Positions 8,694-64,000 of a stretch of DNA of 64,000 nt are shown here, one piece after another. The stretch comes from an uncultured Chloroflexia bacterium (GTDB taxonomy: Bacteria; Chloroflexota; Limnocylindria; Limnocylindrales; CSP1-4): contig CAVQQU010000005.1 of the NCBI GenBank assembly GCA_963715085.1, positions 163,881-227,880 on the forward strand, in the 5' to 3' direction. Position numbers and translations under genes: made by a program. Position 1 is the stretch's first letter. Each line of letters opens with the position of its first letter. Below the pieces are notes generated by a model. That model was not told the DNA's origin. It saw nothing but the letters and a program-made list of their open reading frames with translations, and ran no database searches.

Positions 8694-8834
8694 GCGCGGA
8701 TCCTAGCCGGTCGAGTCATGCCGACGCCGCACCCACGCCCCGTCGAGCCTACCCGAACGCCCGGAGACGGGCCGGACTATCGCCTCGACCCCGATTCTTC
8801 GCTGATCCGATATTCTTGTCGTCAAGTCAACACT

Positions 8835-12629: not shown

Positions 12630-12723
12630 CGATCGACCCGGCGCGTGCCTTCGGGCGATCCGGCACTTGGCCGGTTCGCCCGAGCCGTGCACGCTCCGGG
12701 TCACAAGCACGGAGGTGTTGACG

Positions 12724-13043
12724 TGGCCCTGTTCGAGGAACGTGACCTTGCCCGCTGGGGCCGCGCGGCGCGCGCCTGGCTCGTCCAGGACGACCAGCGC
12801 CGGACGATCGGCCTGATCGTCCTGTCGGTGACGATCTCGATCGCGGTGTCGCTGATCGCGACCGCCGTCGTCGGGCTCGTCTCGAAGCGGCGCGCCCCCG
12901 TCCGGGGCGATGTCCCGCCGCCTGACGTTGGCGAGCCGCTGGCCGAGGTCCAGCCCACGGCCGAGCAGGCCGTGGGCATCCCGGTCATGGCAGCCGACGG
13001 GGTCGCAGCCGCGGTCGAGGCGGCGGAGGCAGGCGGCGCCTGA
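12724..13043 (+). CDS. Hypothetical small single-pass membrane protein
   Basis: GGAGG, then 7 nt, then GTG. TM segment TIGLIVLSVTISIAVSLIATAVVGLV. No recognisable family. Confidence 0.35.
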
Positions 13044-13085
13044 CGATCAGCGCTTCAGGGGCGCTCGCGCGCCCTTCGAGTGGGA

Positions 13086-38354: not shown

Positions 38355-38399
38355 CGCGGCCGCCCTCCCCTGCGAGGCCCGCGAGACGAGACCGTCGCG

Positions 38400-39817: not shown

Positions 39818-39827
39818 CGAACCCTCC

Positions 39828-40836: not shown

Positions 40837-40863
40837 CGGGCCCCTCCTTCCCGGTGCGCAGCC

Positions 40864-41715
40864 CTACGGGCGAGTCAGGTCACCGTACATGTCCGGCCGC
40901 CGGTCGCGGTAGAACTGCCAGGTCTCGCGTACCTTCTTGACCATGTCGAGGTCCAGGTCGCGAACGAGCAGCTCCTCGTCGTGCGGGCTGCCGACGCCGC
41001 CGATGAACTGGCCGCGCGGGTCGCAGAAGTAGCTCTGGCCGTAGAAGTCGTCGGGACCGATCTCGGCCTCGACGCCCACCCGGTTGATCGTTCCGACGAA
41101 GTAGCCGTTCGCCAGCGCGTGGCTGACCTGCTCCACCCGCCAGAGGTACTCGGAGAGGCCGCGGCTGGTGGCCGACGGGATCAGCACGAGCTCGGCGCCG
41201 TTGAGGCCGAGCGCACGGGCACCCTCGGGGAAGTGGCGGTCGTAGCAGATGTAGACCCCGATCTTGCCGACGGCGGTCTCGAAGACCGGGTAGCCCAGGT
41301 TGCCGGGCCGGAAGTAGAACTTCTCCCAGAAGCCCTCGACGTGGGGGATGTGCGTCTTGCGGTACTTGCCGAGGTACGACCCGTCGCTGTCGATGACCGC
41401 GGCGGTGTTGTAGTAGAGGCCGTTGACGCGCTCGTCCTCCTCGTACATCGGGACGACGAGGACCATGCCCGTCTGCTTCGCGAGGTCCTGCATGCGCTTC
41501 GTGGTCGGGCCGTCCGGGATGCGCTCCGTGTACGAGTAGTACTTCTTGTCCTGCACCTGGCAGAAGTAGGGACCGTAGAACAGCTCCTGGAAGAGCATGA
41601 ACTGGGCACCCTGCTTGGCCGCCTCGTGGGCGTAGCCCTCGTGCTTCTGGATCATCGATTCCTTGTCGCCGGTCCAGGTCGCCTGCAGGAGCGCGCCGCG
41701 AACGATCCGGGTCAT
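40864..41715 (-). CDS. Nitrilase-superfamily C-N hydrolase (beta-ureidopropionase / N-carbamoyl-amino-acid amidohydrolase-like)
   Basis: Intact 283 aa. The catalytic triad context E...K...C (VGKIGVYICYDRHFPE). GAGG RBS. Confidence 0.8.
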   Translation of the reverse strand: MTRIVRGALLQATWTGDKESMIQKHEGYAHEAAKQGAQFMLFQELFYGPYFCQVQDKKYYSYTERIPDGPTTKRMQDLAKQTGMVLVVPMYEEDERVNGLYYNTAAVIDSDGSYLGKYRKTHIPHVEGFWEKFYFRPGNLGYPVFETAVGKIGVYICYDRHFPEGARALGLNGAELVLIPSATSRGLSEYLWRVEQVSHALANGYFVGTINRVGVEAEIGPDDFYGQSYFCDPRGQFIGGVGSPHDEELLVRDLDLDMVKKVRETWQFYRDRRPDMYGDLTRP

Positions 41716-41998
41716 GCCGTACCTCACTGTGTCGTCACGGTGGAATGCGGCCGAGGATACACCGGCGGCATGGCCACGCCGCCCCCGACAGGGCCGGTGG
41801 GCGCGAGCCGCTGGCGCATCCGTCGCGTGCGCATCTGTCGTGCCGGGGCTTGCCCGGCCGCGTAGGATGCCCCGCAACTTGGCCGCGATGGTCGGCGAGA
41901 GGTGAGAGGAGGACGACAAGCGGAGGGCCGCACCGAAGCGCGGCGCGTCTTCACCGATCCAGGCATCAACCGCTGAGGGACAACTGCGGAGGGAGTCG

Positions 41999-43641
41999 AT
42001 GACTGCGACAACGATGGAGGAGATCGTCCACCCCGACGGGCGACACGAGCTGACCCCGGACACGGATGCGTCGCTCGACGGATCCCCGCTCCACAACCAG
42101 GACCTTGCACCCGTTGCGCTCCCCAGGCGCACCTGGACCACCTACAACTACCTGGCCCTGTGGATCGGGATGTCCATCAACATCCCGTCGTGGGCGCTGG
42201 CGGCCGGCCTGATCACGATCGGGATGGACTGGGTCCAGGCGATCATCACGATCGGCCTCGGCAATCTGATCGTGCTGATCCCGATGCTGCTGATCAGCCA
42301 CGCGGGCACCAAGTACGGCATCCCGTACCCGGTCGTCTCGCGCGGCCGCGTTCGGCGTCTGGGGCGCCAACCTGCCGGCCCTCCTGCGCGCCGGCGTGGC
42401 CTGCGGGTGGTTCGGCATCCAGACCTGGATCGGCGGCCCTCGCCGTCTTCGCCATCGGCACCGTCGTTCTTCACCGGCTCCTCGGCGAGGACAACTTCTG
42501 GACGACTCGGCCGGCGACGATCTCGATCGGCGATCGGCCTGACGCGGTCCGCTACAGCCTTGGGCGGTGTGGCTCAGCTTCCTCGATCTTCTGGGCCGTC
42601 AACATTTGATCATTCTCTTCGGGGCATGAACACGGTGAAGCGGTTCGAGAACTGGGCCGCGCCGTTCATGGTCGTCGTGTTCCTCGGCCTGATGACTGGA
42701 TGGTCATCCGCGCCGGCGGCCTGGGCCCGGTCGTGGAACAGGCCGGGACCCTCGGCTGGGGTCCGGACTTCTGGGCGGTCTTCCCGATCTCGCTCATGGG
42801 CATGATCGCGTTCTGGTCGACGCTGTCGCTGAACATGCCGGACTTCACCCGGTTCGGCCGAAGTCAGCGTGAGCAGATGGTCGGCCAGGCCGCGGGCCTG
42901 CCTACCACCATGACCCTCTTCCCGCTGCTCGGCGTCCTTACCGTGTCGGCGACGGTCGTCGTCTACGGCGAGGCGATCTGGGACCCGACACGCTGGTCTC
43001 CCGGCTCGACAACCGCTCGTCGTCGATCCTCATGCGGATTCACGCTCGCGATCGCCACCCTGTCGACGAACGTGGCCGCCAACGTCGTGAGCCCGTCCTA
43101 CGACTTCTCCAACGCCTGGCCGAGCAAGATCAGCTTCCGCACCGGCGGCATCATCACGGGCATCATCGGCATCCTGATCATGCCCTGGAACCTGCTGGCC
43201 ACGCCGAGCTCTACATCTTCACCTGGCTCGGCACCTACGGCGGCCTGACCGGCGCCATTGCCGGCGTGCTGATCGCCGACTACTGGTTGATTCGGCGGAC
43301 GAAGCTCAAGCTGGCCGACCTCTACCGGCCGAACGGCATCTACCGCTACGCCGGCGGTTGGAACTGGCGGGCGCTCGTCGCCCTCATCGTCGGGGCCATC
43401 GTGGGCATCGGCGGCGCCTACACGCCGGCCGGCGCCAGCGGTCCGTTCCCGGCAGACGGGATCATCCCGTTCCTCAAGCCGTTCTACGACTACAGCTGGA
43501 TCGCCTCGCTGATCGTCGGGTTCGTGCTCTACTGGGTTCTCGCCACGTTCTTTATCCCGCAGAAGGGCCAGGAGATCGAGGACATGGCTGCCTGCGGCCG
43601 GCGGCTGCCGAGCCGCCAGATCCGCGCCGTCATGGGTCGCA
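41999..43641 (+). pseudogene. NCS1-family nucleobase:cation symporter (uracil/allantoin/hydantoin-type permease); frameshifted three or more times
   Basis: NCS1 N-terminus (YNYLALWIGMSINIPSWALAAGL) and fragments in all three plus frames. The 3' end is approximate and upstream of the 43670 terminator. Confidence 0.7.
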
Positions 43642-43669
43642 CTGACCCCGCGCCGATGCAGCACGAAGC

Positions 43670-43702
43670 GAAGGGGCCCCTCCGCCGAGCGGAGGGGCCC
43701 CT
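43670..43702. terminator. Bidirectional intrinsic terminator: perfect 15-bp stem AAGGGGCCCCTCCGC-cga-GCGGAGGGGCCCCTT followed by TTCTTGTGT
   Basis: Read directly. It sits between convergent NCS1 and mmsA. Confidence 0.6.
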
Positions 43703-43765
43703 TCTTGTGTCCGACATCGAGCCGATTCGGCGGTGGGCCGCCGTGCGCGCTCGGGCGGGATGGGC

Positions 43766-45309
43766 TCAGCTGTTGCCGGGGAAGACCAGGGAGAGGCCGG
43801 GACGGCGGCCGGGCTCCGGCCAGCGCTCGGTGACCATCTTCTGCTGGGTGAAGAAGCGGACCCCGTCCTCGCCGCGCATGGCCAGGTCGCCGATGGCCGA
43901 CTCCTTGGCCCCCCCGAAGGAGAGGTAGCCGGCCGGGACCGGGATCGGGACGTTGACCCCGATCATGGGCACCTCGACCTCGAGCTTGAAGCGCCGGGCG
44001 GCACCGCCGTCGGTCGTGAAGATGGCCGTCCCGTTGGCGTACTTGTGGGCGTTGATGAGGCCGATCGCCTCGTCGTACGTCGCCGCGTGGACGATGCCCA
44101 GCACCGGCCCGAAGATCTCCTCCTGGTAGATGTCCATGTCCGGGGTCACGTGGTCGAAGAGGGTGACCCCGAGGAAGAAGCCGTCGGGGTTCGTCCGGAT
44201 GGACGAAGGGCCGCCCGTCGACCACGAGCTCGGCCCCCTCGGCCTCGCCCCGCTCGATCCACTTCACGACCGAGGCCCGGTGCTCCGCGGTGTAGAGCGG
44301 GCCCATGTCCACGCCCGGCTCCATGCCCGGGCCGACCTGGAGCTTGGCGATCCGCTCCTCCATGAGCGGGCGGAGCCTGTCCGCCGTGTCGCCCACCGTG
44401 ATGACGAGGGTCTGGGCCATGCAGCGCTCGCCGGCGGAGCCGTAGCCCGCGGCGACCGCGGCGTCGGCGGTCAGCTCCATGTCGGCGTCGGGCAGGACGA
44501 TCATCGCGTTCTTGGCCGAGGTGTACGCCCCGACCCGCTTGCCCCGCTTCGTGCCCTCCTCGAAGACGTACTTCCCGACCGCGGTCGAGCCCACGAACTG
44601 GATGGCCTTGATGCCCGGGTGCTCGACGATCGCGCTGACCGCGTCGCGGCCGCCGTACACGACGTTGAACGTGCCGTCGGGGCCGCCGGCCGCCTGCCAC
44701 AGCTCGGCCTGGAGCTGGGTGGCCCCGGGGGTGTGGGAGGAGGGCTTGAGGACGACCGTGTTGCCGCACATGAGGGCGATCGGGACGATCCACATGGGGA
44801 CCATGACCGGGAAGTTGAAGGGCGTGATCGCCGCGACCACCCCGAGCGGGCCGCGCAGGGTGAAGGCGTCCACGTTGGTGGCCACGTTGGGGGTCATCAT
44901 CCCCGCCAGGTGGACCGGCAGGCCGGCCGCGTACTCGACCGTCTCGAGGCCGCGCATCACCTCGGCGAAGGCGTCGGGGTAGGTCTTGCCGTGGTCCCTC
45001 GTGATGAGGGCGGCCAGCTCCTCGCGGTGCTGCCAGAGCTGCTCGCGCCAGGCGAAGAAGACCTCGCTGCGGGCGATGAGGGGGGTGTCCCGCCAGGCCG
45101 GGAAGGCGGCGGCCGCCGCGGCCACGGCCGCGTCCACCTCGGGTGCCCCGCCGCGCGGGACGCGGGCGATGACCGCTCCCGTGGCCGGGTTGTACACCGG
45201 GCCGGTCTGCTCGGGCAGGACCTCGACCGGTGCGCCGGCGATCCAGTGGGACAGGATGGGCAGGCTCACGGGGGCCGCGCTGGCCTCCGGACGCACTTCG
45301 GTCGTCATG
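43766..45309 (-). pseudogene. mmsA: Methylmalonate-semialdehyde dehydrogenase (CoA-acylating); one frameshift near 44190
   Basis: AAGGAGG RBS. The ILSHWIAG hallmark. The catalytic Cys context GERCMA. The C-terminal 127 aa are in a second frame. Confidence 0.8.
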
Positions 45310-45704
45310 GTGCTGGTGCCTCCTTGGGGCTGCGGCAGGACGCGTGGCCACGATGGCCAGCCGGCATGGATCGGGCAGACCCGTCTCGCGAGCTGTTCCA
45401 CCGATCGTCGTCATTATGGCGCCCACCGCGCAAGGTCCGGACGGCGACTTCCGAGCCTGCCGGACGGACCGTCTGGGGCAGCGGCCCGGCCGGGCGGCTG
45501 GGGTGCCGTGGGAACCAGGACGATCGGCCTGCACCCGGTCGTCACCGTCCGGGCGCCGAGTCTCGCCCGCGAGCGCAGGGCCGCGCCGGCCCGGCGTCTC
45601 GTGTCCTTTGGGCCTCTCGCCGCGTGTCCCTCCCGTGCTGTAATGACCGCGACGCCCCAGCGTGACCACGCGGACGGCCCGCGCCGCCCGGTACGGAGGA
45701 CCTC

Positions 45705-47041
45705 ATGAGCACCAGCACCGCGCCCGGAACCATGGCCAGCGAGGAGATCGTTCGCCTCTCCCGGGCGCACACGTTCTTCTCGTGGTCCGCCCAGGGCGCC
45801 ATCGACCCCATCGCGATCGACCACGCCGAGGGGATCTACCTCTACACGCCCGAAGGCCGCCGGATCATCGACTTCAACAGCCAGCTGATGTCGGTGAACG
45901 TCGGCCACGGCGACCGCCGGATCATCGACGCGATCACGGCCCAGGCGGCGAAGCTCCAGTACGTCCAGCCGGCCTTCGCCACCGAGATCCGGGCCCGCCT
46001 CGGCGCGAAGATGGCCGAGATCATGCCGGGCGACCTCGACAAGGTCTTCTTCACCCTCGGCGGGGCGGAGGCGGTCGAGAACGCGATCAAGCTCGCCCGC
46101 CACTTCACGGGCCGGACCAAGGTGCTCGCCCGCTACCGGACCTACCACGGCGCCACGCTCGGGGCCATGACGCTCACCGGCGACCCGCGCCGCTGGGCCA
46201 ACGAGCCGGCGATCTACGGGGTCGTCCGCTACCCGGACACGCATCGCTGGGGCGAGAAGGAGCCCCGGCCGGCGGCCGAGGCGCTGGCCGGCCTCGAGGA
46301 CGTGATCCGCTACGAGGGCCCGCACACGATCGCGGCGATCTTCCTCGAGACGATCGTGGGGACGAACGGCATCCTCATCCCGCCCGACGGCTACCTGGCC
46401 GGCGTGCGCGAGCTGTGCGACCGCTACGGGATCCTCATGGTCGCCGACGAGGTGATGGCCGGCTTCGGGCGGACCGGCAAGTGGTTCGCGGTCGACCACT
46501 GGGACGTCGTGCCCGACCTCATGACGATGGCCAAGGGCCTGACGTCGAGCTACCTGCCCGCTCGGCGCGGTGGCGATGCGCCACCACATCGCCGAGGCGT
46601 TCGACACGAAGATGTTCTACGGCGGCCTCACCTACAGCAGCCACCCGGTGAGCCTGGCGGCCGCCCTGGCCACGATCGGGGTCTACGAGGAAGACGGGCT
46701 CATCGAGCGGTCCGCCGCCATGGGGGCGGTGCTGCCGCAGCCACCACGAGGCGCTCGCGGCGAAGCACCCGAGCGTGGGCGCGACCCGCAGCCTGGGCCT
46801 CTTCGGGATCATCGACCTGGTCCGCAGCCGGGACCCGTGGACTCCGATGACGCCGTTCAACGGCACGTCGGACGAGATGAAGGCGGTCGCGAAGCACCTC
46901 CGCGACAACGGCCTCTACACGATGATCGCCAACAACGGGATCCACACGAACCCGCCGCTGTGCATCACGGAGGAGCAGCTCGGCGAGGCCTTCGCGATCA
47001 TCGACGCGGCCCTCGACAAGGCGGACGAGGCGCTCGCGTAG
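45705..47041 (+). pseudogene. Class III omega-aminotransferase (beta-alanine/beta-aminoisobutyrate:pyruvate type); frameshifted two to three times in the 3' third
   Basis: MVADEVMAGFGRTGKWF. The PLP-lysine MAKGLTSSY. The C-terminus GLYTMIANNGIHTNPPLCITEEQL is in another frame. Confidence 0.75.
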
Positions 47042-49976: not shown

Positions 49977-52277
<2,301 letters not shown>

Positions 52278-52363
52278 CCCGCGGCCGGCCGTGTGATGAC
52301 CGTGCCGCATTCGTTAACCGTCCGCCAACGCGCCAGTAACCACGGGACCTATCCTGTGGGGCG

Positions 52364-53053
52364 ATGGCCCGCACGATCCTCGTCGTCGATGATGAGCCGA
52401 CCCTGCGCGAGACGCTTGCCGAGGCGCTCGACGCGGACGGCTTTCGCGTGATCACGGCTGCTGACGGACGCGAGGCGCTGGTGCAGTTCCGCGAGCACCG
52501 CCCTGAGCTCGTGGTCCTGGACCTCATGCTTCCCGAGCTCTCCGGGATCGAGGTGTGCCGGGTCATCCGCCAGGAGTCAGACGTCCCGATCCTGATGCTC
52601 ACCGCGAAGAGCTCGGAGGTCGACAAGATCGTCGGCCTGGAGCTGGGGGCCGATGACTACGTCACGAAGCCCTTCAGCCTTCGCGAGCTCAGCGCACGCA
52701 TCCGGGCGCTCCTGCGGCGGTCGGAGCAGGTCGCGTCGGAGAGCCTCGCCACGGTCACCGTCGGCGAGCTGACCGTGGACCTGACCGGTCATCGGCTGCT
52801 GCGCGCCGGGGAGGTCGTCCCGCTCAAGCCGAAGGTGTTCGAGCTGCTGGCATTCCTCGTCCGCCATCCGGGGCAGGTCTTCAGCCGAGAGCAGCTCCTC
52901 CAGCAGGTGTGGGGCTATGACTACGCCGGCGAGACGCGCACCGTGGACGTCCACGTCCACTGGCTGCGCACGGCGATCGAGCCGGACCCGGCAGCGCCGA
53001 CCCTGCTCCAGACCGTGCGGGGTGTCGGCTACGTGCTCCGCCGCCCGACCTGA
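52364..53053 (+). CDS. OmpR/PhoB-family response regulator, RegX3-like
   Basis: Intact 229 aa. Receiver D-D-K residues. High similarity to the RegX3 segment SSEVDKIVGLELGADDYVTKPFSLRELSARIRALLRR. Winged-helix C-terminus. Confidence 0.85.
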   Translation: MARTILVVDDEPTLRETLAEALDADGFRVITAADGREALVQFREHRPELVVLDLMLPELSGIEVCRVIRQESDVPILMLTAKSSEVDKIVGLELGADDYVTKPFSLRELSARIRALLRRSEQVASESLATVTVGELTVDLTGHRLLRAGEVVPLKPKVFELLAFLVRHPGQVFSREQLLQQVWGYDYAGETRTVDVHVHWLRTAIEPDPAAPTLLQTVRGVGYVLRRPT

Positions 53054-53115
53054 CGCCGAGAAGGCGCCGGCAGCCGAGACGTCCTCGAGGTCGTCGTGAC
53101 GACCGATCCGCGGCG

Positions 53116-53730
53116 CTACTGGTGCTTGGCGGCCACCCGCTCGAGGACCTCGGCCGCGTCCTCGGCCGCGTCGATGGTGTCCTCGAGGGCCATGTAGAGG
53201 TCGCGGAACTTGATCACGCGGAGGGGGTCGCCCCCGTCGTGGAAGAGCCGGCCGATCGCCGCCCGCGAGAGGCCGTCAGCCTTGTTCTCGAGGTCGTGGA
53301 CCTGCACGAGGTGGCGCCCCGCATTCTCGAGGTGATCGAGCAGCTTCAGGGCCGAGAGCAGCTGCTCGGCCTGGGCCGCGACGATGCCGGCGAGCTGCCG
53401 CGCCTCGTCCGTGGGCGCCTCGATGCCGTAGATGACGACCGTCTCAGCGGCCTCCTGGATGCCGTCCACGACGTCGTCAAGGCGCGCCGACAGCTCGTGG
53501 ATGTCATCGCGGTCAAAGGGCGTGATGAACGCGCGCTCGAGGCGCACCGCGATCTCGGCGTCGATCTGGTCGCCCGCGTGCTCCAGCGCCTGGATCTCGG
53601 CGACACGTTCGTCGAGGCGATCGAAGATGGTGAACAGGTCATTGAGCGCTCGCGCGGCCAGGAGCAGGTTCTCGCCATCCTTGACGAAGATCTCCTGGAA
53701 TGCCTCGTCGCGCGGGATCAGGCGGGGCAT
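53116..53730 (-). CDS. DUF47-family (PhoU-like, Pit-accessory) protein
   Basis: GGAGG RBS. An all-alpha PhoU-like repeat composition. Intact 204 aa immediately downstream of pit. Confidence 0.7.
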   Translation of the reverse strand: MPRLIPRDEAFQEIFVKDGENLLLAARALNDLFTIFDRLDERVAEIQALEHAGDQIDAEIAVRLERAFITPFDRDDIHELSARLDDVVDGIQEAAETVVIYGIEAPTDEARQLAGIVAAQAEQLLSALKLLDHLENAGRHLVQVHDLENKADGLSRAAIGRLFHDGGDPLRVIKFRDLYMALEDTIDAAEDAAEVLERVAAKHQ

Positions 53731-54747
53731 GGTGCAACCTCCGGGAAGTGCGTCACTTGATGGCGAGATGCGTTCAGCACGACCCACGAGAGCGCCCCCA
53801 TGGTCGCGGCGGCGGGAAGCGTCACCACCCACGCGACGAGGATGCTGCGGGCGACACCCCAGCGGACGCCATGGGCGCCCTTGCTCGTCCCGACGCCCAT
53901 GATCGCGCTGGAGATGACGTGCGTCGTCGAGACCGGCATGCCGAAGTGGGCCGCCGTGTAGATGATCGTGGCCGCCGTCGTCTCGGCCGCGAAGCCGTGG
54001 ATCGGCTCGAGCTCGACGACCTTGTGGCCCATGGTCTTCATGATCCGCCAGCCGCCGGCGGCGGTGCCCAGCGAGATGGCAGTGGCCGAGAGAACGATGA
54101 CCTCGGGGGGAACTTCGATCGAGTCGATGACGCCGGCCGAGAAGAGCGCCAGCGTGATGATGCCCATCGTCTTCTGGGCGTCGTTGGATCCGTGAGCGAA
54201 GGCCATGAACCCGGCGGACACGACCTGGAGACGCCGGAAGCGGCGCGCGAGCGGTCGGCGATCGGCGCGCCGGAAGATCCAGAAGAGGGCGATCATCAGC
54301 GAGAACGCGCCGGCGAAGCCGATCACCGGCGAGGTGACGAGCGGGATCAGGACCTTGTTGACGATGCCCTCGATGTTGAGGGCGCCGACCCCCGCGGCGA
54401 CGATCGTGGCACCGATGAGCCCGCCGATCAGGGCGTGGCTGCTGGAGCTCGGGATGCCGAGGCGCCACGTGATCAGGTTCCAGGCAATCGCCCCGATCAG
54501 CGCCGCGCCGACCACCGCCTGGGTGGTCGTCGACTCGTCGACGATGCCCTGCCCCGATCGTCTTGGCGACGGCCGTCCCGGCGAACGCCCCGATGAAGTT
54601 GAACGCGGCCGCCATGGCGATCGCGTGCGCAGGGCGCAGAGCCCGCGTCGCCACCGACGTGGCGATCGCGTTGGCCGTGTCGTGGAAGCCGTTGATGTAG
54701 TCGAACGCGAGCGCCAGGACGATGATGACGAGGAGGGTTACGTCCAC
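53718..54747 (-). pseudogene. pit: PiT-family inorganic phosphate transporter; one frameshift near 54450
   Basis: GTG start and AFDYINGFHDTANAIATS (the PiT signature). A second signature GSNDAQKTMGII. It overlaps DUF47 by 13 nt. Confidence 0.7.
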
Positions 54748-54902
54748 GGCAGGAAGCGCTACAGACGCCGATGGTGGTCGCGCATGGCCCCAGTATGTTG
54801 ATCTTGTTAACGGCTCGCAGGACGGCTTCGCGCGCACAGTGCCGACAGAGCGTTAACCGCCGGTCGATCTGCCGTTCATCAGCCCGGGCCAGTCTTCGCG
54901 CC

Positions 54903-55382
54903 ATGGTCAGCCAGCTCGAGTCGTCGTCGGGCGCGTCGGGCCCGTTGCGCGAGGGGCCCCACGGTGCTCCGGCGCGACGGCCGGTGCGCCGCCGCCTCGT
55001 GGTCGCGCCGGCGCCATCGGCGGAGCATGCGCTCGCGGCGCGGGCCGACGAGGTCCTTCAGGCCCGCATCGGGCGTCCGCCGGCCCGGTGGCTCCTGCCG
55101 GGGTTCGCCGCGGATGTCGACCAGGTCCGCCGGCAGCTGGGTCCACTCCGCGATCGCCGGATGCTCGTGGCCTCCTTCGAGCGCGAGAGCGCCCGGCTGG
55201 CGGCGCTGCGCCGGCTCGTCGCCGACCCGACCGTCCCGCCCCTCCCCGTGGATCCGGTCGAAGCTGCCTACGCGATCCGCTGGCTCGAGCTCGCCGACGG
55301 CGGCACTGCGCTGCCGCCGTGGCGCGCCTTCATCGAGGGTGGGGTCACCGAGCCCGACGCAGTCGATCCGTCGCCCGGCTGA
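54903..55382 (+). CDS. Hypothetical protein
   Basis: 159 aa ORF with non-repetitive composition (…RWLELADGGTALPPWRAFIEGG…). No family recognised. Confidence 0.3.
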   Translation: MVSQLESSSGASGPLREGPHGAPARRPVRRRLVVAPAPSAEHALAARADEVLQARIGRPPARWLLPGFAADVDQVRRQLGPLRDRRMLVASFERESARLAALRRLVADPTVPPLPVDPVEAAYAIRWLELADGGTALPPWRAFIEGGVTEPDAVDPSPG

Positions 55383-55492
55383 CGAGGGAGGCTCCCAGGG
55401 CCATCTGGCCGGGCCGCAGGTGCCCTGGGCCGCCCGGCGGCGGGGCCATCTGGCCGTGGCGCCGGCATCCACGATCACGCCACGATCGGGCG

Positions 55493-57037
55493 GTGACGGA
55501 TCATCTCGAGACCCTCCGCGCGATGCGGGTGCGGGCGCTGGAGGGCGGCGGCCCCGAGCGCGTCGCGCAGCAGCATGCCCGGGGCAAGCTCACGGCCCGG
55601 GAGCGGCTGGCGCTGCTCCTCGACGACAGCTCGTTCCAGGAGATGGGCGCCCTGGCCACCCACGACGAGACCGAGTTCGGCCTTGCCGACCAGCGCTACC
55701 CGGGCGACGGCATCGTGGCCGGCTTCGGCAAGATCAACGGCCGGCGCGTGGCCGCCTTCGCGCAGGACTTCACGGTCCTGGGCGGGTCATTCAGCCGGGT
55801 CCAGTCCAACAAGATCAGTCGGATCCAGGATCTGGCACTCGAGAGCGGCGTCCCGCTCATCGGCCTCAACGACTCCGGCGGGGCGCGGATCCAGGAAGGC
55901 GTCGCGAGCCTTGCGGCGTACGGCGAGATCTTCGTGCGCAACGTGCTGTCCTCCGGTGTCATTCCCCAGATCTCGCTGATCCTGGGGCCGTGCGCCGGCG
56001 GCGCGGTCTACTCGCCGGCGCTCACTGACTTCGTGGTGATGGCCCGCGGTACCTCATCGATGTTCCTGACAGGCCCCGACGTCGTCGCGGCGGTCACCGG
56101 GGAGAGAGTCACGATCGACGAGCTCGGCGGGGCCGACGTCCACGACACCCGGAGCGGGGTCGCCCACCTGGTCGCCGACACCGAGCCGCAGGCCCTCGAG
56201 CTCGTGAAGCTCCTGCTCGGCTACCTGCCCCAGAACAACAACGAGGACCCGCCGCAGGTCACGCCCCACGATCCGGCCGATCGGATGGACGACGAGCTCA
56301 ACACCATCGTCCCGGACGAGGAGGCGGAGGCCTACGACGTCCGCGACGTCCTGGCCATGGTGTTCGACCGCGACAGCTTCCTCGAGATCCATCCCGCCTA
56401 CGCGCCGAACGCCGTCGTCGGCTTCGCCCGCCTCGACGGGTACTCGGTCGGGATCGTCGCCAACCAGCCGGCCGTGATGGCCGGCGTCCTCGACATCGAC
56501 GCCAGCGACAAGATCGCCCGCTTCATCCGGATCTGCGATGTGTACAACATCCCGATCGTCACGTTCGTGGATTGCCCGGGCTTCCTGCCCGGGATCGACC
56601 AGGAGTACCGGGGCGTGATCCGCCACGGGGCCAAGATCATCTACGCCTATTGCGAGGCGACGGTCCCGAAGATCTCGATCGTCACCCGCAAGGCGATGGG
56701 CGGCGCCTACGTGGCGATGTCATCGCGCCAGATGCGGACCGACGTGGCGTTCGCCTGGCCGGGCGCGCAGATCGCGGTGATGGGGGCCGAAGCGGCCGTC
56801 CGGATCCTGTACCGGCGCGAGGTCCGCGAGGCCGCCGACCCGGCCGCGGCGGAGGCGGCCTACGTCGCCCGCTACCGCGAGGCGTTCTTCAATCCCTACC
56901 GGGCCGCCGACGTGGGTCAGATCGACGAGGTCATCGAGCCGCGCGAGACGCGGCCGCGCCTCATCCGGGCGTTGGAGCTGCTGCGCACGAAGGTCCAGCA
57001 GAACCCACCCAAGAAGCACGGCCTCTTCCCGGCTTAG
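55493..57037 (+). CDS. Acyl-CoA carboxyltransferase subunit (propionyl-CoA carboxylase beta / methylmalonyl-CoA decarboxylase alpha type)
   Basis: Intact 514 aa. GKLTARERLALLLD at the N-terminus and two CT subdomains (GGAYVAMSS...). Confidence 0.85.
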   Translation: MTDHLETLRAMRVRALEGGGPERVAQQHARGKLTARERLALLLDDSSFQEMGALATHDETEFGLADQRYPGDGIVAGFGKINGRRVAAFAQDFTVLGGSFSRVQSNKISRIQDLALESGVPLIGLNDSGGARIQEGVASLAAYGEIFVRNVLSSGVIPQISLILGPCAGGAVYSPALTDFVVMARGTSSMFLTGPDVVAAVTGERVTIDELGGADVHDTRSGVAHLVADTEPQALELVKLLLGYLPQNNNEDPPQVTPHDPADRMDDELNTIVPDEEAEAYDVRDVLAMVFDRDSFLEIHPAYAPNAVVGFARLDGYSVGIVANQPAVMAGVLDIDASDKIARFIRICDVYNIPIVTFVDCPGFLPGIDQEYRGVIRHGAKIIYAYCEATVPKISIVTRKAMGGAYVAMSSRQMRTDVAFAWPGAQIAVMGAEAAVRILYRREVREAADPAAAEAAYVARYREAFFNPYRAADVGQIDEVIEPRETRPRLIRALELLRTKVQQNPPKKHGLFPA

Positions 57038-57045
57038 GCCGAGTG

Positions 57046-57471
57046 ATGGAGAACCTCGGCTTCGGCCTGGCCGTCGCGGTCGTCGGGATGGGCATCGTCT
57101 TTGGCCTGCTCGCGGTCATGTGGGCCCTCCTCACGCTCGCCCTGAAGCTCGAGCATCGCCACGATGGCGTCGGGCCGGCGGTTGCGACGGCGCCGGGCCC
57201 CGTGGACGAGGGGCCCGGCATCTCCGTGCCGCGGCCGAGGGTCGTGCCGAGCGCCGCCGGCACCCACCGCCTCTCCGGCGTGCCCGAGGGCCTCGATCCC
57301 CGGCTCGTCGCCGCCGTCACCGTGGCCGTCCTCCGCCACGCGGAGACCCGGCGCCGGCAGGCCGCCCCCGCCATGCGCAGCTACTGGCCGGGAAGCCTCC
57401 TGTTCGCGAGCCGCTGGGTGGCGGCGGGCCGGATGCGCCAGGGCCAGACTTGGCGGCGGCGGGCGAGGTAG
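57046..57471 (+). CDS. OadG-like gamma subunit of a Na+-translocating decarboxylase (small membrane anchor)
   Basis: The N-terminal TM MENLGFGLAVAVVGMGIVFGLLAVMWALLTLA, typical of OadG/MmdD. 9 nt after the carboxyltransferase gene. Confidence 0.5.
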   Translation: MENLGFGLAVAVVGMGIVFGLLAVMWALLTLALKLEHRHDGVGPAVATAPGPVDEGPGISVPRPRVVPSAAGTHRLSGVPEGLDPRLVAAVTVAVLRHAETRRRQAAPAMRSYWPGSLLFASRWVAAGRMRQGQTWRRRAR

Positions 57472-57474
57472 TCG

Positions 57475-57993
57475 ATGCGCCGTTACACCGTCGCCATCGG
57501 TGACGAGACCTACACGATCGACGTCCACCAGCTTGCCGCCGACCGCTTCGAGGTCACCGTCGGCGACCTGGCCTTCGAGGCGACGCTCGAGGAGGAGGGC
57601 GATCTGCCGGGCGCGCTGATCTCGCCGGAGATGGTGGCGCCCGAGGAGGCACGGTCGGCGCCTCTGCCCCGGGTGATCGCCCAGCCCGCCCCGCCGTCGA
57701 GCCCGGGACCCAGGCCCGGTCCGGCCGCCAGGAGCTCGCCCGGTGCGGAGACCGCACCCGCCGGCGGACGCACCGACGTCCTTGCGGCACCGATGCCCGG
57801 GGTCGTCCTGGAGGTGCTCGTCGCTCCCGGCACGGCCCTGCGTCGAGGTGACCCGATCCTGGTTCTCGAGGCGATGAAGATGCGCAACACGATCCGCTCG
57901 CCGCGCGACGCGGTCGTGCTGGAGATCGCCGTCGAGGCCGGCCGGACCGTCGGACCGGGCGACGCGCTCGTCCGTCTCGGCGCCGCCGGGTGA
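57475..57993 (+). CDS. Biotin carboxyl carrier protein subunit
   Basis: The biotinyl-lysine motif EAMKM in a C-terminal biotinyl domain. A Pro/Ala linker. Confidence 0.8.
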   Translation: MRRYTVAIGDETYTIDVHQLAADRFEVTVGDLAFEATLEEEGDLPGALISPEMVAPEEARSAPLPRVIAQPAPPSSPGPRPGPAARSSPGAETAPAGGRTDVLAAPMPGVVLEVLVAPGTALRRGDPILVLEAMKMRNTIRSPRDAVVLEIAVEAGRTVGPGDALVRLGAAG

Positions 57994-58009
57994 GCCGGGC
58001 GGGCGACGG

Positions 58010-59131
58010 ATGAGCGGCGCCACCGTCGACCAGCTGCTCGCAGGGATCACGGGCCTCACGTGGCAGTCCCTGGTGATGTTCGCCGTCGCCGGGATCCTGC
58101 TCTACCTGGCGATCGTTCGCGAGTACGAGCCGCTGCTTCTCCTGCCGATCGCGGCGGGCTGCCTTCTCGCCAACCTGCCCCTCTCGCCGATGATCGGAGA
58201 GGAGGGGCTCCTCACGCTCCTCTACGACGCGGGGATCGAGAACGAGCTCTTCCCGCTCCTCATCTTCATCGGGATCGGCGCCATGACCGACTTCGGCCCC
58301 TTGCTGGAGAACCCGCGGATGATCCTGCTCGGCGCCGCCGGGCAGTTCGGGATCTTCGGCGTCCTCATCCTGGCCCTCCTCCTCGGCTTCAGCCGCGAGG
58401 AGGCCGCGTCGATCGGGATCATTGGCGCCATCGACGGACCGACCTCGATCTACGTCAGCGGGATCCTGGCCCCGCACCTCCTGGGACCCATCACCGTCGC
58501 CGCCTACAGCTACATGGCCCTGGTGCCGGTGATCATGCCGCCGGTCATGCGGGCCCTCACCAGCCCCGAGGAGCGCCGGATCAGGATGCCGTACGGCGGC
58601 CGCGCGGTGAGCCGACGGACCCGGATCCTCTTCCCGATTGGGGTGACGCTGCTCGTCGGGACGCTCGTGCCGTTCGCCACGCCGCTCGTCGGCTCGCTCA
58701 TGCTCGGCAACCTCATGCGAGAGTCGAGCGTCGTGGAGCGGCTCACGAAGATGTCCTCGAACGAGCTGGCGAACATCGTCACGCTCTTCCTCGGCCTCGC
58801 GATCGGGTCGACGATGGTCGGCGAGCAGTTCCTGAACGGGACGACGCTGGCGATCCTCGGCCTCGGCATCCTCGCCTTCGCGCTCGACACGGCGGCCGGG
58901 CTGGTCTTCGCCAAGGGCCTCAACCGGCTCGCCGGCGGGACCTTCAACCCGTTGATCGGGGCGGCCGGGATCAGCGCCTTCCCGATGGCGGCGCGGGTCG
59001 TCCAGCGCGTGGCGCAGGAGGAGGACTTCGAGAGCTACCCGCTGATGCACGCGATGGGGGCCAACGCCGCCGGCCAGGTCGCCAGCGTCGTCGCGGGTGG
59101 GGTGCTGCTGGCGCTGATGGCCGCGGCCTGA
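58010..59131 (+). CDS. Na+-translocating decarboxylase beta subunit (OadB/MmdB/GcdB family)
   Basis: Intact 373 aa polytopic protein with strong OadB-family similarity throughout (LLYDAGIENELFPLLIFIGIGAMTDFGPLL...). Confidence 0.85.
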   Translation: MSGATVDQLLAGITGLTWQSLVMFAVAGILLYLAIVREYEPLLLLPIAAGCLLANLPLSPMIGEEGLLTLLYDAGIENELFPLLIFIGIGAMTDFGPLLENPRMILLGAAGQFGIFGVLILALLLGFSREEAASIGIIGAIDGPTSIYVSGILAPHLLGPITVAAYSYMALVPVIMPPVMRALTSPEERRIRMPYGGRAVSRRTRILFPIGVTLLVGTLVPFATPLVGSLMLGNLMRESSVVERLTKMSSNELANIVTLFLGLAIGSTMVGEQFLNGTTLAILGLGILAFALDTAAGLVFAKGLNRLAGGTFNPLIGAAGISAFPMAARVVQRVAQEEDFESYPLMHAMGANAAGQVASVVAGGVLLALMAAA

Positions 59132-59150
59132 ACCTCGGCGGACGTCGTCG

Positions 59151-60531
59151 TCAGGCGACGACGCTCGGGAGGTCTCGATAGGCGCCTTTCCGCCACGTGC
59201 CGTCGACCATGTCGCCCATGATCCGGGTGAGCAGGTCGGCGAACCCGGGGTCGAGGATGTGCATGTCGGCCGCGAGCACGTCGAGGTGCTCGTTCGAGGG
59301 CTCGACCGCCGTCGCCACCGTCCGCCAGGTGATCGCCGCCTTGCGCGACCACGCCGGCACTTCGGGATCGGCCTCCCAGGTGGGTCCGTCGCCGTTACCC
59401 TCCGCCCAGCCCCGCGCCCGCGTGGCCGTGACCTCCGGCTGGTCATAGGCGGAGAGGCCCCGCAAGGGCACGACGAAGGCCGTGGGCCCGGTCGCCCGGC
59501 AGAGGCGCGCGGCGACCAGGCGGGCCACCTCGGCGCTCTCGTCGGGCGTCGGCCGGATGGTCGTCACGTTCGCGTTGTGGAGATACGGCGCGCGCGTGCC
59601 GTGGTGGCCCGCGCGCCGGCCATCGGCGATCTCGTCGAGGATCCGCTGGGGGACCACCTCGAGCGCGCCATGGGACGCCTGGTCGAGCCCGCCGGGGACG
59701 ACGACCTGGGGGATGCCGAGTTCGCCGGCGGCCGTCAGGCGCTCGCCCTCCCAGGTGTCGGGGGCGCGGTAGACGCTGCCGAGGTGACCGCCCATGAGCT
59801 CGGCGATCGTGAGGTCGATGACCGCGGTGATCTGCCCGGAGCGGACGAGGTCCTCCATCGTCGCTCCGGGCACGCCGACGGCGTGGAAGACCGCGACGTC
59901 CCAGCCGCGCGCCTCCATGAACGCCGAGCAGCGGGCAACCGTCGGTGTCGTCGAGCCGTAGGCCGTGATCGCGCAGAGCGGGCGCCCACCGGCCGTGACC
60001 TCGGGCAGCCTCGCCATGCCGACAATGGCCGCGGCGGCGTTCGCGACCGCGCGCCGGGTCACGACGTTGATGCCCTGCTCGGCAGTCGGGTTGACCATCC
60101 AGATGTCCTTGGTGCCGACCCAGCGGCTGATGTCGCTGGCGACCATGTCGCTCAGCATCACCTTCGGGACGCCGAACGGCAGCGCCCGCATGACCATCGT
60201 CGCCGTCGTCGTCCCCACGGCGCCGGCCCACGAGATGATCCCGTCGCAGCGACCGGCGGCGTGCAGCTCCAGGATCTTGGCCGCGCCGGCGTGCCCGACC
60301 AGGTCGATGGCCGCCGCCCTGGGGGCCGCGTAGACGGCTTCCGGCAGCCGTGCCGGTCGCGGCCAGCACCTCGCCCAGCGAGACGTCCGCCCAGTCGACG
60401 GCGCCGCCCAGGCTCAGGTCCATGATGAGCGGCCTGCCGCCGTGCACCGCGACCTGCTCGGCGAGGAACCGGATCTCGACGCCCTTCGTGTTGCACATCC
60501 CGGTGACGACGATCGTCGGCGCCTCGCTCAT
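59151..60531 (-). pseudogene. UPF0261 (Tm-1-like) family protein; frameshifted two or more times
   Basis: AGGAGG RBS. MSEAPTIVVTGMCNTKGVEIRFLAEQV. The body GTTTATMVMRALPFGVPKVMLS. Confidence 0.6.
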
Positions 60532-60709
60532 GGGTACCTCCTGGGACGGGCCGCTGTGGGCCACGTGTCAGACGGTGGCCCCCTGCCCGTGTCCATGATG
60601 GCGCTCCAGCTTCCCTCGCACCTGCCCCCAAGGAGCTCCCGGCGCGCACCGCGTGTCCGGGGCGGCGCACACCGCGTCGCCCGGGGCGGCGCGCCGGTAT
60701 CCTTCGCGT

Positions 60710-62411
60710 ATGCGCCTGAGCCATCTCTTCTTCACGACCCTCCGCGACGACCCCTCTGACGCGGAGATGCCGAGCCATCGCCTCCTGGTCCGGGCCGGCT
60801 ACGTCCGCCAGCTGGGCGCCGGCATCTACTCGCTGCTGCCGCTCGGCTTCCGGGTGGCGAAGCGGGTGGAGCAGGTGATCCGCGAGGAGATGGACCGGAT
60901 CGGCTGCCAGGAGATGGAGATGCCGGTCGTCCATCCGGCCGAGCTCTGGAAGGAGACCGGGCGCTGGTACCAGATCGGCCCCGAGATGGCCCGCTTCAAG
61001 GACCGCGGCGGACGCGACATGGTCCTGGCCATGACCCACGAGGAGGTCGTCGCGAGCCTCCTGGCCGACCTCGTGAAGAGCTACCGCCAGCTGCCGATGA
61101 TGGTCTACCACTTCCAGACGAAGTGGCGCGACGAGCCGCGTTCCCGGGGCGGGCTCATCCGCGTCCGCGAGTTCGTCATGAAGGACTCGTACACCTGCGA
61201 TCTCGACGAGGCCGGCCTCGACGTCGCCTACGAGAAGCACTACGAGGCGTACACCAGGATCTTCGAGCGGCTGGGGTTGCGGGCCGTCGCGGTCGCCTCG
61301 GACGTGGGGATGATGGGCGGCACGGGTGCCCACGAGTTCATGGTCCTCAACGAGTACGGCGAGGACGTCCTGGTCCTGTGCGAGACGTGCGGCTTCTCCG
61401 CCAACCGGCAGGTCGCGACCGTCCGCGTGTCCGAGCCGCCGGCGGGCGAGCCACTCCCGCTCGAGGAGGTGGCCACTCCCGGCACCACCACGATCGCGGA
61501 TCTCGCTGCGTTCCTCGGGATCAGCCCCGAGGAGACGGCCAAGGCGACCTTCTTCGTGGACGGCGACGGGCGGCTCATCACCGCCATCGTCCGGGGCGAC
61601 ATGGAGGTCAACGAGACCAAGCTCGCCAACGCGACCGGCGCCCGCGCGCTTCGGCCGGCCCAGGTCGAGGAGATCAAGGCGGCCGGGATGGAGCCCGGCT
61701 ACGGCTCGCCGATCGGCGCCCGCGGCGCCTTCATCCTCGTGGACGAGCTGGTGGCTCGCTCCTCCAACCTCGTGGCCGGCGCCAACCGGGAGGGGTTCCA
61801 CTACCGCAACGTCAACGTCGGCCGCGACTTCACGCCCGACCTTGTCGCGGACCTGGCCAACGCCCGCGAGGGCGACGGATGTCCCACCTGCGGCTCGCCG
61901 GTCATCCTGCGCAACGGGATCGAGGTCGGCAACATCTTCAAGCTGGGCACGAAGTACACGACCGCCCTCGGCGCGACGTACCTCGGCGAGGACGGCATGG
62001 CGCATCCCATCGTCATGGGCTCCTATGGCATCGGCGTCGGGCCGCGCCCTCGCCTGCGTCGTCGAGGCCCACCATGACGCGAAGGGGATCGCCTGGCCGG
62101 CCGAGGTGGCGCCCTACGCGGCCCACGTCGTGACCGTGTCGGCGGCGAAGGACCCACGCGTCACCGAGATCGCCGAGCGCCTCCACGACCAGGCCCGCGA
62201 CGCCGGCCGCGAGGTCATCTGGGACGACCGCGACGAGTCGCCGGGCGTCAAGTTCACCGACGCCGAGCTCCTCGGGATGCCCCTGATCGTCACGATCAGC
62301 CCGCGCTCGCTGGCGGCGGGCGGCGCCGAGGTGACCGTGCGGGCGACCGGCGAGCGGACGATCGAATCGCTCGAGGCGGTCGAAGCGCGCCTCCTGGCCA
62401 AGGCCGGGTAA
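60710..62411 (+). pseudogene. proS: Proline--tRNA ligase; one frameshift near 62040
   Basis: Bacterial-type ProRS with an INS domain. The class II motifs. The C-terminal anticodon-binding domain is in a second frame. Confidence 0.8.
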
Positions 62412-62437
62412 GCAGGCCGGCGGCGGCCCCGATCCCG

Positions 62438-63650
62438 ATGGGTGCGCTGCTCGAGTACGGCGCCCTTCTCGCGCTCGTCGCGGCCGCGCTGCTCCTGCTC
62501 GCCGGATGGCTCCAGCGACGCGGCGCCCGGCAGGGGTCGTCCAGGCCCGCGCCGGCCGATGTGGCGGTCGAGGCGCGCCTCGCGGCGGCCGACGAGCGGG
62601 CGGCGGCTGCTCACCGCGACGCGGCCGTCCTCGTCGAGCTCGTCGGCGTTGGAGCCGTCCACCTGGACCCTGACCTCACGGTGACGGCCGCGAACGAGGC
62701 AGCCCATCGGCTGGTGGGCCGGCGACCGGGCGCGATGGTCGGAGGCAGCGTTCTCGAAGCGTTCACCGATCATCACGTCGAGGAGATCGCCCGCACCGCG
62801 CTCGCGTCCGGTTCGGCAGTCGGCGAGCTCACCGTGCGGATCGAGCACGGTCCGACGCTGCTGGCCCGCGCCCAGCGGATGCCGGCGAGGTGACGCCTGG
62901 CTCGTGCTCGAGGACGTCTCAGAGCTGCGGCGCCTGCAGCGCATTCGCACCGAGTTCCTCGACAACCTCAGCCACGAGCTGCGCACGCCGCTGACGACCA
63001 TCAGCCTCCTCGCGGAGACGCTGGCCGCCGACGCGGACACCCTGCCGCCTAGGGCCGCGGAGCGGGTGGCGAAGATCGAGGTTGAGACCGGGCACCTCGT
63101 CCAGATGGTCAACGAGCTGCTCGACCTTTCGCGGATCGAATCGGGGATCGCGACCGAGGCCCTCGATGCCGTCGACCTCGGACGCCTGGCGGTCGAGACG
63201 GCGGACCGCATGCGACTCTTCGCCGAGCGGCAGGGCGTGATCATCGAAGTCCGTGCCCCGCCCGCCCTCCCGCTCGTACGCGGCGACCGCGAGCGGCTCG
63301 GCCAGGCGCTCCTGAACCTGCTCCACAACGCCGTCAAGTTCAGCCCGGCCGGATCGACCGTGGCCATCATCGTCCTGGTCGCCGAGACGGAGGTGATCGT
63401 CGCGGTGGAGGATCACGGCCCGGGGATCCCGCGGACCGCACTGCCGAGGATCTTCGAGCGCTTCTACAAGGTCGACCGGGCTCGCACGCGCGGCGCCGGC
63501 GGCACCGGCCTCGGTCTTTCGATCGTCCGCCACGTCGTCGAGGCGCACGGCGGCCGGATCTGGGCGGAGTCCGAGGAGGGCGTGGGGTCGACCTTCTCGT
63601 TCGCGATCCCGGTCGCAGGCCCGGACCTCGCAGCGACGCCGGGCGGCTGA
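62438..63650 (+). pseudogene. PAS-domain sensor histidine kinase, SenX3-like; one frameshift near 62890
   Basis: N-terminal TM and PAS. H-box LSHELRTPLT. N, G1 and G2 boxes (HNAVKF, EDHGPGI, GGTGLGLSI). Confidence 0.75.
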
Positions 63651-63652
63651 CC

Positions 63653-64000
63653 GTGCTCCTGCTGGCCCATCGGGGCGACCACCGCGAGGCACCGGAGAAC
63701 ACGCTCGCGGCCTTCGCGGCCGCGCTGGCGATTCCCGGGGTCGACGGCCTCGAGCTCGACCTCCGGGCATCTGCGGACGGCATCGCAGTCGTCCTCCACG
63801 ACGCCTCGTTGGCGCGCGTGCAGCGCCGGAGCATCCGTGCGTCGCGGCTTGCTGCTGGAGAGCTGGCTGCGTTCGGCGTTCCCGGCCTCATCGATGTGCT
63901 GGCTGCCTGCCCCCCCGGCGCGTTCCTCGATGTCGAGCTGAAGGAGGATCTGGGCGAGGCCGCGCTGGCGCCGCTGCGGGCTGCCCGGGGTCGCGACGAC
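63653..64000 (+). CDS. Glycerophosphodiester phosphodiesterase family protein; the 3' end is truncated by the window edge
   Basis: GTG start overlapping the HK stop. The GDPD N-terminal motif HRGDHREAPENTLAAF. Confidence 0.6.
   Translation, partial: MLLLAHRGDHREAPENTLAAFAAALAIPGVDGLELDLRASADGIAVVLHDASLARVQRRSIRASRLAAGELAAFGVPGLIDVLAACPPGAFLDVELKEDLGEAALAPLRAARGRDD

Follow-up and report, generated by a model that had tools for sequence, protein, structure and literature searches.

Four adjacent genes at positions 55493-59131 of the window (the whole stretch of 64,000 nucleotides analysed here, from contig CAVQQU010000005.1 of an uncultured Chloroflexia bacterium) very probably form an mmdADCB operon of the Propionigenium type, whose product would be a biotin-dependent acyl-CoA decarboxylase that sits in the membrane and translocates Na+. 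The predicted products are a carboxyltransferase (alpha), a small membrane anchor (delta), a biotin carrier (gamma) and a polytopic membrane protein (beta), and the substrate is most likely (S)-methylmalonyl-CoA, possibly also malonyl-CoA. The initial annotation of this DNA had described a complete operon for a Na+-translocating biotin decarboxylase of the methylmalonyl-CoA type. Our analysis supports that description: each of the four proteins could be assigned to a family, the residues checked in the beta subunit are conserved and the carboxyltransferase resembles that of methylmalonyl-CoA decarboxylase (Mmd). Several of the ideas about the host and the metabolic setting that went with it fared less well.

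All four open reading frames lie on the plus strand in the same direction and contain no internal stops, and profile searches found a family for each, as expected from the earlier description of four contiguous, intact genes. The gaps between them are 8, 3 and 16 nucleotides (nt); the spacing is as tight as had been reported, although the figures given then (9, 4 and 17 nt) were each off by one. The ATG of the anchor gene is at 57046 and not 57047, one base ahead of the start that had been implied. Within the cluster, a consensus scan detected nothing resembling a terminator on the plus strand, which fits with transcription of the four genes as one operon. Scanning 54700-59400 for sigma-70 promoters gave no promoter-like site, and the same region held one intrinsic terminator candidate, at chance level and on the minus strand; both scans are uninformative for a Chloroflexota genome of 72% GC.

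The beta subunit matches PF03977 (OAD_beta) with 480 bits (E=4.6e-144; cut-off 31.6) and TIGR01109 (“sodium ion-translocating decarboxylase subunit beta”) with 439 bits against a cut-off of 190. A possible objection named in the initial annotation, that this protein could fall outside the family alignment and belong to some other transporter family, does not hold: with both scores above their cut-offs it is a member of OAD_beta. Against the NCBIfam models specific for OadB it scores 366-367 bits, where the cut-offs are 820-824. The protein aligns end to end with Salmonella OadB (StOadB; PDB 6IVA/6IWW) at 342 bits, and all 11 residues that we checked are identical. Giving the StOadB residue first, these are E40=E40, D203=D142, Y229=Y168, R304=R244, N311=N251, N373=N313, G377=G317, S382=S322, R389=R329, N412=N352 and S419=S359. 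Six of them were tracked in 79 genomic relatives and were invariant. In StOadB, D203 together with S382 makes up the first Na+ site, N412 belongs to the second, and E40, R304 and N311 are essential (PMC7274780). Earlier work in Klebsiella found Y229, N373 and G377 to be critical and activity to be cut by 90% when S419 was changed to Ala; R389 was also characterised there and could be substituted without severe inhibition (PMC7274780). The beta subunit encoded in the window would be the site of both carboxybiotin decarboxylation and Na+ translocation.

The carboxyltransferase matches PF01039 (Carboxyl_trans) over residues 26-511 (E=6.6e-188) and has both GG(A) oxyanion motifs. The alignment with homologues begins at residue 2, and the sequence GTGAC(G/C)GAT at the start is common to the relatives, in agreement with the GTG start codon. 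Its top NCBIfam model is TIGR01117 (mmdA) at 742 bits, with the next model at 69 bits. Among proteins of known structure it scores 642 bits with 1VRG (Thermotoga “PccB”), 632 with 1X0U (Sulfolobus, deposited as Mmd alpha), about 612 with Streptomyces PccB and 573 with the 12S transcarboxylase subunit, but only 116 and 107 with the GcdA structures 1PIX and 3GF3. The PccB, 12S and MmdA types therefore score five to six times as high as GcdA. A profile search found no OadA-type domain (HMGL-like/PYC_OADA) in any of the four operon proteins. Val407 (56711-56713) aligns with Asp422 of Streptomyces PccB, the position being placed through the D422V and D422I structures 3IAV and 1XNW. Thermotoga 1VRG has Ile at the equivalent position and the 12S transcarboxylase subunit has Leu, both hydrophobic like Val407. 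At this site the decarboxylase/transcarboxylase branch seems distinct from the ATP-dependent PccB. In studies of PccB D422 mutants, the position reportedly influences acyl-CoA specificity.

The anchor matches PF04277 with 30.8 bits (cut-off 27) over residues 7-98, and scores 21.7 bits against TIGR01195, under the cut-off of 36. It has a single hydrophobic segment, an N-terminal transmembrane helix within residues 1-36, followed by a variable Pro/Ala-rich linker and then a conserved C-terminal module. When anchors from different phyla are aligned, both the helix and the C-terminus, RRxQAAPAMRSYWPGSxLFASRWVxxGR(xRQ), are conserved. The tail of about 43 residues (99-141; 57340-57468) extends past the Pfam OAD_gamma domain and is conserved from Chloroflexota to Propionibacteriales and NC10 (loci L002-L078). 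It may match the separate epsilon subunit of the Veillonella Mmd.

The carrier matches PF00364 with an E-value of 4.2e-15. It consists of an N-terminal anchor domain, a long Pro/Ala-rich linker and a C-terminal biotinyl domain, and the biotinyl lysine is K135, 37 residues before the C-terminus. Its NCBIfam scores, 92 bits for NF004173 and 78 bits for NF047903 (MmdC), are both under the cut-offs. The layout of the carrier and the anchor matches that described for GcdC and GcdD and for their Oad and Mmd counterparts (PMC7145394).

Assignment to the Mmd, Oad or Gcd type was made on operon architecture, NCBIfam models and PDB scores. The structural scores, the absence of an OadA domain from the four proteins, the rank of TIGR01117 as best model, beta scores far below those demanded by the OadB and malonate models, and the gene order alpha, delta, gamma, beta together point to an Mmd-type pump. 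We use “Mmd-type” for the cluster rather than calling it a proven Mmd, and treat the curated NCBIfam cut-off as a strict rule of annotation, not as a defining biochemical feature.

Family homology and the conserved residues suggest how such an enzyme would work. The soluble carboxyltransferase would shift the free carboxyl group of methylmalonyl-CoA to the biotin on K135 of the carrier, releasing propionyl-CoA. The Pro/Ala-rich linker of the carrier would then let carboxybiotin swing over to the beta subunit in the membrane, which would decarboxylate it with the consumption of one proton, the free energy driving the export of Na+. The sodium ions would be bound at sites built by D142 and S322 and by N352, and the small, single-helix delta subunit would tie the carboxyltransferase to beta. 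The analysis shows the content, order and intactness of the genes, their families, the catalytic and Na+-site residues, the taxonomy and the conservation; the substrate of the pump, its Na+ coupling, its working direction and its physiological role are what we infer.

The same four subunit types are found in MmdADCB of Propionigenium modestum and MmdADECB of Veillonella parvula. In P. modestum the carboxyltransferase gene is reportedly followed by those for the small anchor, the biotin carrier and beta (Bott et al. 1997, cited in PMC7650540 and PMC7145394), which is also the order seen here. Both of these systems, like that of the window, have a PccB-like carboxyltransferase of about 510 residues, a carrier with a Pro/Ala linker and an MKM motif, and a beta subunit of about 373 residues without the insertion of enterobacterial OadB, which has about 60 extra residues after the first helix. 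They differ in their host, an anaerobic Fusobacterium or Firmicute and not a high-GC soil Chloroflexota. MmdADECB, which was reportedly described by Huder and Dimroth in 1993, also has a separate epsilon subunit gene, unlike the window.

Other members of the wider family are less close. OadGAB of Salmonella, Klebsiella and Vibrio (6IVA/6IWW; PMC7274780) has a homologous beta subunit, identical at the checked residues, and the single-helix OadG-type anchor is common to both systems, but its OadA is a TIM-barrel protein with a fused biotin domain, where the window has an acyl-CoA carboxyltransferase and a separate carrier. GcdABCD of Acidaminococcus and Clostridium symbiosum (PMC7145394) follows the same four-subunit logic, with the same domain layout in carrier and anchor. 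GcdA itself, at about 587 residues, belongs to a distinct carboxyltransferase subfamily and scores 107-116 bits against the window protein. The Mmd of Acidipropionibacterium acidipropionici and other Propionibacteriales (PMC7650540) has the same gene order in a high-GC genome, and is 72-80% (beta) and 65-74% (carboxyltransferase) identical to that of the window. These organisms belong to another phylum and their enzymes to a separate clade of the tree, and the upstream palindrome described below is absent from them.

The host had been described as having an actinobacterial-like genome, and this cannot be maintained. Window positions 50016-63999 are 97% identical at the nucleotide level, over 14 kb, to CAVUAG010000019.1, from a metagenome-assembled genome (MAG) deposited as an uncultured Chloroflexia bacterium, and the closest named proteins are from Candidatus Limnocylindrales or Chloroflexi. 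For the beta subunit, the nearest homologues (83-99% identity) are encoded in MAGs labelled uncultured Chloroflexia bacterium (MFD series), Chloroflexota bacterium or Candidatus Limnocylindrales bacterium; Limnocylindrales is an order within Chloroflexota. The contig index has no exact copy of the window's beta protein, and close relatives were used in its place. Seven further related assemblies are syntenic across the neighbourhood at about 80-90% nucleotide identity, and contigs of up to 3.5 Mb with this arrangement are labelled uncultured Chloroflexia bacterium. Judging by these matches the host is a high-GC (72%) Chloroflexota bacterium and no actinomycete, an uncultured soil organism that is Limnocylindria-like.

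We looked for relatives of the operon in a single, pattern-limited scan with one genome per species. This returned at least 568, and the taxonomic counts that follow are from the best 80 loci: 38 in Actinomycetota, 33 in Chloroflexota, five in NC10/Methylomirabilota and four in other bins. The Actinomycetota are mainly Propionibacteriales (Luteococcus, Micropruina, Tessaracoccus, Propionicimonas, Propioniciclava, Nigerium, Cutibacterium modestum and C. namnetense), along with Austwickia and Mobilicoccus, and the Chloroflexota include Chloroflexus and Oscillochloris. Sodium-pumping decarboxylases had been thought uncommon in GC-rich Actinomycetota. The 38 actinomycete loci among the best 80, and the published Acidipropionibacterium acidipropionici case, in which a Na+-pumping Mmd is transcribed (PMC7650540), argue otherwise. 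A Na+-pumping Mmd was also reported in a Chloroflexi genome in 2013 (PMC3971608); for Limnocylindria or Ellin6529 we found no specific literature on Mmd.

The carboxyltransferase and beta genes stand in the same relative order in all 66 fetched loci that hold both, and an anchor is detectable between them in 59 of the 66. The full order of carboxyltransferase, anchor, carrier and beta is shared by loci from Chloroflexota, Propionibacteriales, Dermatophilaceae and NC10. The beta and carboxyltransferase sequences of the genomic relatives were concatenated, and an unrooted neighbour-joining tree built from them groups the relatives by taxonomy. The window falls inside the MFD Chloroflexota clade, to which the Chloroflexales are sister; NC10 and an Anaerolineae bin come next, and the Actinomycetota make up a clade of their own.

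The initial annotation had raised the possibility of horizontal transfer. GC content and codon usage compared with the flanking genes, the tree and the synteny gave no sign of acquisition. The four mmd genes have a GC content of 0.69-0.77 (0.88-0.97 at third codon positions) and a codon usage indistinguishable from that of 16 other genes in the window. Recent transfer of the operon was rejected on this composition, the conserved synteny and the tree that follows taxonomy, and by the same measures the operon has been inherited vertically and conserved within this lineage.

Two further observations came from the relatives. Identity to the window across Chloroflexota, Actinomycetota and NC10 (loci L015-L076) is 72-80% for beta and 65-77% for the carboxyltransferase, which seems high for different phyla. 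This may reflect strong constraint or an old transfer between phyla; the tree still follows taxonomy. Three Chloroflexales loci (L014, about 8986-10515; L065, about 12030-13559; L079, about 8177-9706, minus) also have a second carboxyltransferase, 54-55% identical to that of the window, on the opposite strand 2.5-3 kb downstream of the mmd operon, and in L014 a second biotin-carrier-like match lies between the two. In these Chloroflexales the second gene may belong to a different acyl-CoA carboxylase; the window has no such gene.

The region upstream of the operon contains a palindrome that is specific to this clade. The 14-mer GGGCCATCTGGCCG occurs exactly twice in the 64-kb window, the copies being 45 nt apart and both 5' of the operon. 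Among loci that have GGGCCATCTGGCCG unchanged, every copy is just ahead of the carboxyltransferase start, and the closest relatives keep a copy at the distal position. Of the 16 checkable loci of this Chloroflexota clade, 15 have the core, GGCC-N4-GGCC, at -48 to -50 relative to the start codon, L010 being the one without it. Loci with the palindrome (L001-L007, L011-L013, L016, L062, L063 and L075) have it at -48 to -50 and -92 to -94. Variants at the proximal site (GGCCATCTGGCC, GGCCATCCGGCC, GGCCATGTGGCC, GGCCGATCGGCC and GGCCACATGGCC) keep the arms while the central bases vary and the flanks diverge. The palindrome is absent upstream of the operon in the Chloroflexales, NC10 and Actinomycetota loci. 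It is probably a clade-specific operator, or a promoter element, for some regulator, and offers a handle for finding the regulator of the operon. Rfam gave no match anywhere in the window at gathering thresholds, so that the 650-nt upstream region shows no known riboswitch or leader. Open reading frames in this gap (54771-55379 on the plus strand and others) were rejected as genes: they have no Pfam match, and conservation in relatives is limited to the last 100 nt or so.

A number of points weigh against a methylmalonyl-CoA decarboxylating sodium pump. The carboxyltransferase falls short of the curated cut-off for TIGR01117 (742 against 998.8 bits), and the carrier of that for NF047903 (78 against 200 bits). 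With Val407, malonyl-CoA or another acyl-CoA could also serve as a substrate. The neighbouring genes have housekeeping functions and give no hint of what the operon does. Methylmalonyl-CoA mutase, epimerase and CoA-transferase were not found in the open reading frames scanned across the 64-kb window, and neither the choice between Na+ and H+ as coupling ion nor the direction in vivo can be read from sequence. The low scores, and the presence of Val407 where bona fide PccB has Asp, leave room for a Na+-translocating decarboxylase with some other substrate (malonyl-CoA, glutaconyl-CoA, oxaloacetate or malonate), and a relaxed acyl-CoA specificity that takes in malonyl-CoA, for example, is plausible. 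We nevertheless consider a different substrate very unlikely. TIGR01117 is by far the best of the listed NCBIfam models for the carboxyltransferase; glutaconyl-CoA is opposed by the 116 bits for GcdA against 573-642 for the PccB/12S/MmdA group, oxaloacetate by the lack of an HMGL-like/PYC_OADA domain, and malonate by a score of 152 bits against the malonate-decarboxylase beta model TIGR03136 (cut-off 597) and by the lack of mad genes nearby. As PccB (612 bits) and 12S (573 bits) are about as similar to the carboxyltransferase as the deposited Mmd alpha, the genes might also encode an ordinary ATP-dependent propionyl- or acyl-CoA carboxylase, or a transcarboxylase, with its biotin carboxylase or 5S partner elsewhere and the two membrane genes as unrelated neighbours. 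Such an arrangement is extremely improbable when the genes are 3-16 nt apart in an order kept over several phyla, and when the carrier encoded between the two membrane subunits is free-standing and has the anchor domain and linker typical of its Gcd and Mmd counterparts. The anchor and beta subunits are known only as parts of Na+-pumping decarboxylases. The open reading frames scanned across the 64-kb window included no ATP-grasp biotin carboxylase, 5S subunit or other carboxylase partner.

The direction of an Mmd-type pump raises a separate question. The Na+ gradient might drive the carboxylation of propionyl-CoA, derived from thymine, valine or odd-chain compounds, to methylmalonyl-CoA, replacing an ATP-dependent propionyl-CoA carboxylase. 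Both Oad and Mmd were reportedly reversed in proteoliposomes in vitro by Dimroth and Hilpert in 1984 (listed in the references of PMC7274780); no organism is known to grow by running such a pump in reverse. The window does contain a reductive pyrimidine-catabolism-like cluster (about 35780-47041, including an amidohydrolase) with a propionyl-CoA producer, mmsA, and in the relative L062 the aminotransferase is only about 4 kb upstream of the operon. The scanned open reading frames also lack a PccA-type biotin carboxylase, though 64 kb cannot show its absence from the genome. MmsA and the aminotransferase are encoded by the genes that the initial annotation had placed just upstream of the operon and proposed as feeders of the pump, coupling valine or thymine catabolism to a sodium-motive force. 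The genes are real but they are not adjacent: seven unrelated genes and at least 8.4 kb separate the mmsA cluster, which is partly on the other strand, from the operon downstream of it. The linkage to mmsA is not kept, since the neighbours that the operon retains in relatives are gltX, PHO4, proS and a response regulator gene. In the established pathway MmsA forms propionyl-CoA from methylmalonate semialdehyde, and propionyl-CoA is what Mmd releases, not its substrate. As the cluster is distant, mmsA yields the product of Mmd, and the frames scanned across the 64 kb gave no sign of a methylmalonyl-CoA mutase or epimerase, a CoA-transferase or a biotin carboxylase, the context gives no functional support to the coupling idea. 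We regard reverse operation as very improbable. A more elaborate scheme takes the conserved Mmd pump out of fermentation. In these Limnocylindria-like Chloroflexota, which apparently live in soil, it might instead tie propionyl-CoA/methylmalonyl-CoA metabolism to a sodium cycle under clade-specific regulation, with the two GGCC-N4-GGCC elements as its operators, and might even work in reverse as an ATP-independent propionyl-CoA carboxylase driven by the Na+ gradient. We see this as a long shot.

The likely role of the Mmd-type pump is energy conservation on the route from succinate to propionate (succinyl-CoA to methylmalonyl-CoA to propionyl-CoA) when respiration is limited, although we hold this less firmly than the class of the enzyme. 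As a find the operon is ordinary. The family, its subunits, the order of the operon and its occurrence in Chloroflexota and high-GC Actinomycetota are already documented, and it is annotated in public MAGs. There is little new in it for enzymology, and its ecological interest is modest: widespread uncultured soil Chloroflexota keep a sodium-pumping decarboxylase at a fixed chromosomal position, which hints at facultative fermentation of succinate to propionate or at sodium bioenergetics.

Table 1. The predicted mmd operon, its upstream palindromes and other features of the window
Feature	Position	Strand	Details
mmdA-like carboxyltransferase (alpha)	55493-57037	+	514 aa, GTG start; PF01039, TIGR01117
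mmdD / OadG-like membrane anchor (delta)	57046-57471	+	141 aa; PF04277 (OAD_gamma)
mmdC-like biotin carrier (gamma)	57475-57993	+	172 aa; PF00364 (Biotin_lipoyl), EAMKM
mmdB-like beta subunit	58010-59131	+	373 aa, polytopic membrane protein; PF03977, TIGR01109
Distal copy of 14-mer GGGCCATCTGGCCG	55398-55411	+	palindrome core GGCC-N4-GGCC begins 94 nt before start codon
Proximal copy of GGGCCATCTGGCCG	55443-55456	+	palindrome core begins 49 nt before start codon
Dihydropyrimidinase	38400-39722	minus	TIGR02033 524 bits, over cut-off
Carbon-nitrogen hydrolase	40864-42141	minus	
Cytosine/uracil-type permease fragment	~42.9-43.9 kb		
mmsA-type aldehyde dehydrogenase	~43.8-45.3 kb	minus	TIGR01722 419 bits on larger part of frame-broken gene
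Class-III aminotransferase	45666-47041	+	
Conserved neighbourhood			order: DtxR-type repressor, gltX, response regulator, PhoU_div + PHO4 (other strand), operon, UPF0261 gene, proS, histidine kinase

The 8.4 kb between the end of the pyrimidine cluster and the operon hold an asparaginase II gene, the DtxR-type repressor, gltX and the response regulator; PhoU_div and PHO4 lie there too, in the opposite orientation. The 650-nt gap lies immediately 5' of the operon, beyond PHO4.

Several genes of the window are split between frames: gltX (about 51090), PHO4 (about 54523-54590), AcrB (about 10416-11347), the aldehyde dehydrogenase (about 44263) and the aminotransferase (about 46652-46850). In sister assemblies some of the mmd genes were themselves matched in two pieces (delta in L001, the carboxyltransferase in L011 and L013, beta in L063), and in L081 the carboxyltransferase and delta were called as a fusion. 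This pattern suggests indel errors in assembly rather than pseudogenes or other biology. Despite the frame breaks in several of their neighbours, the four mmd genes of the window are unbroken.

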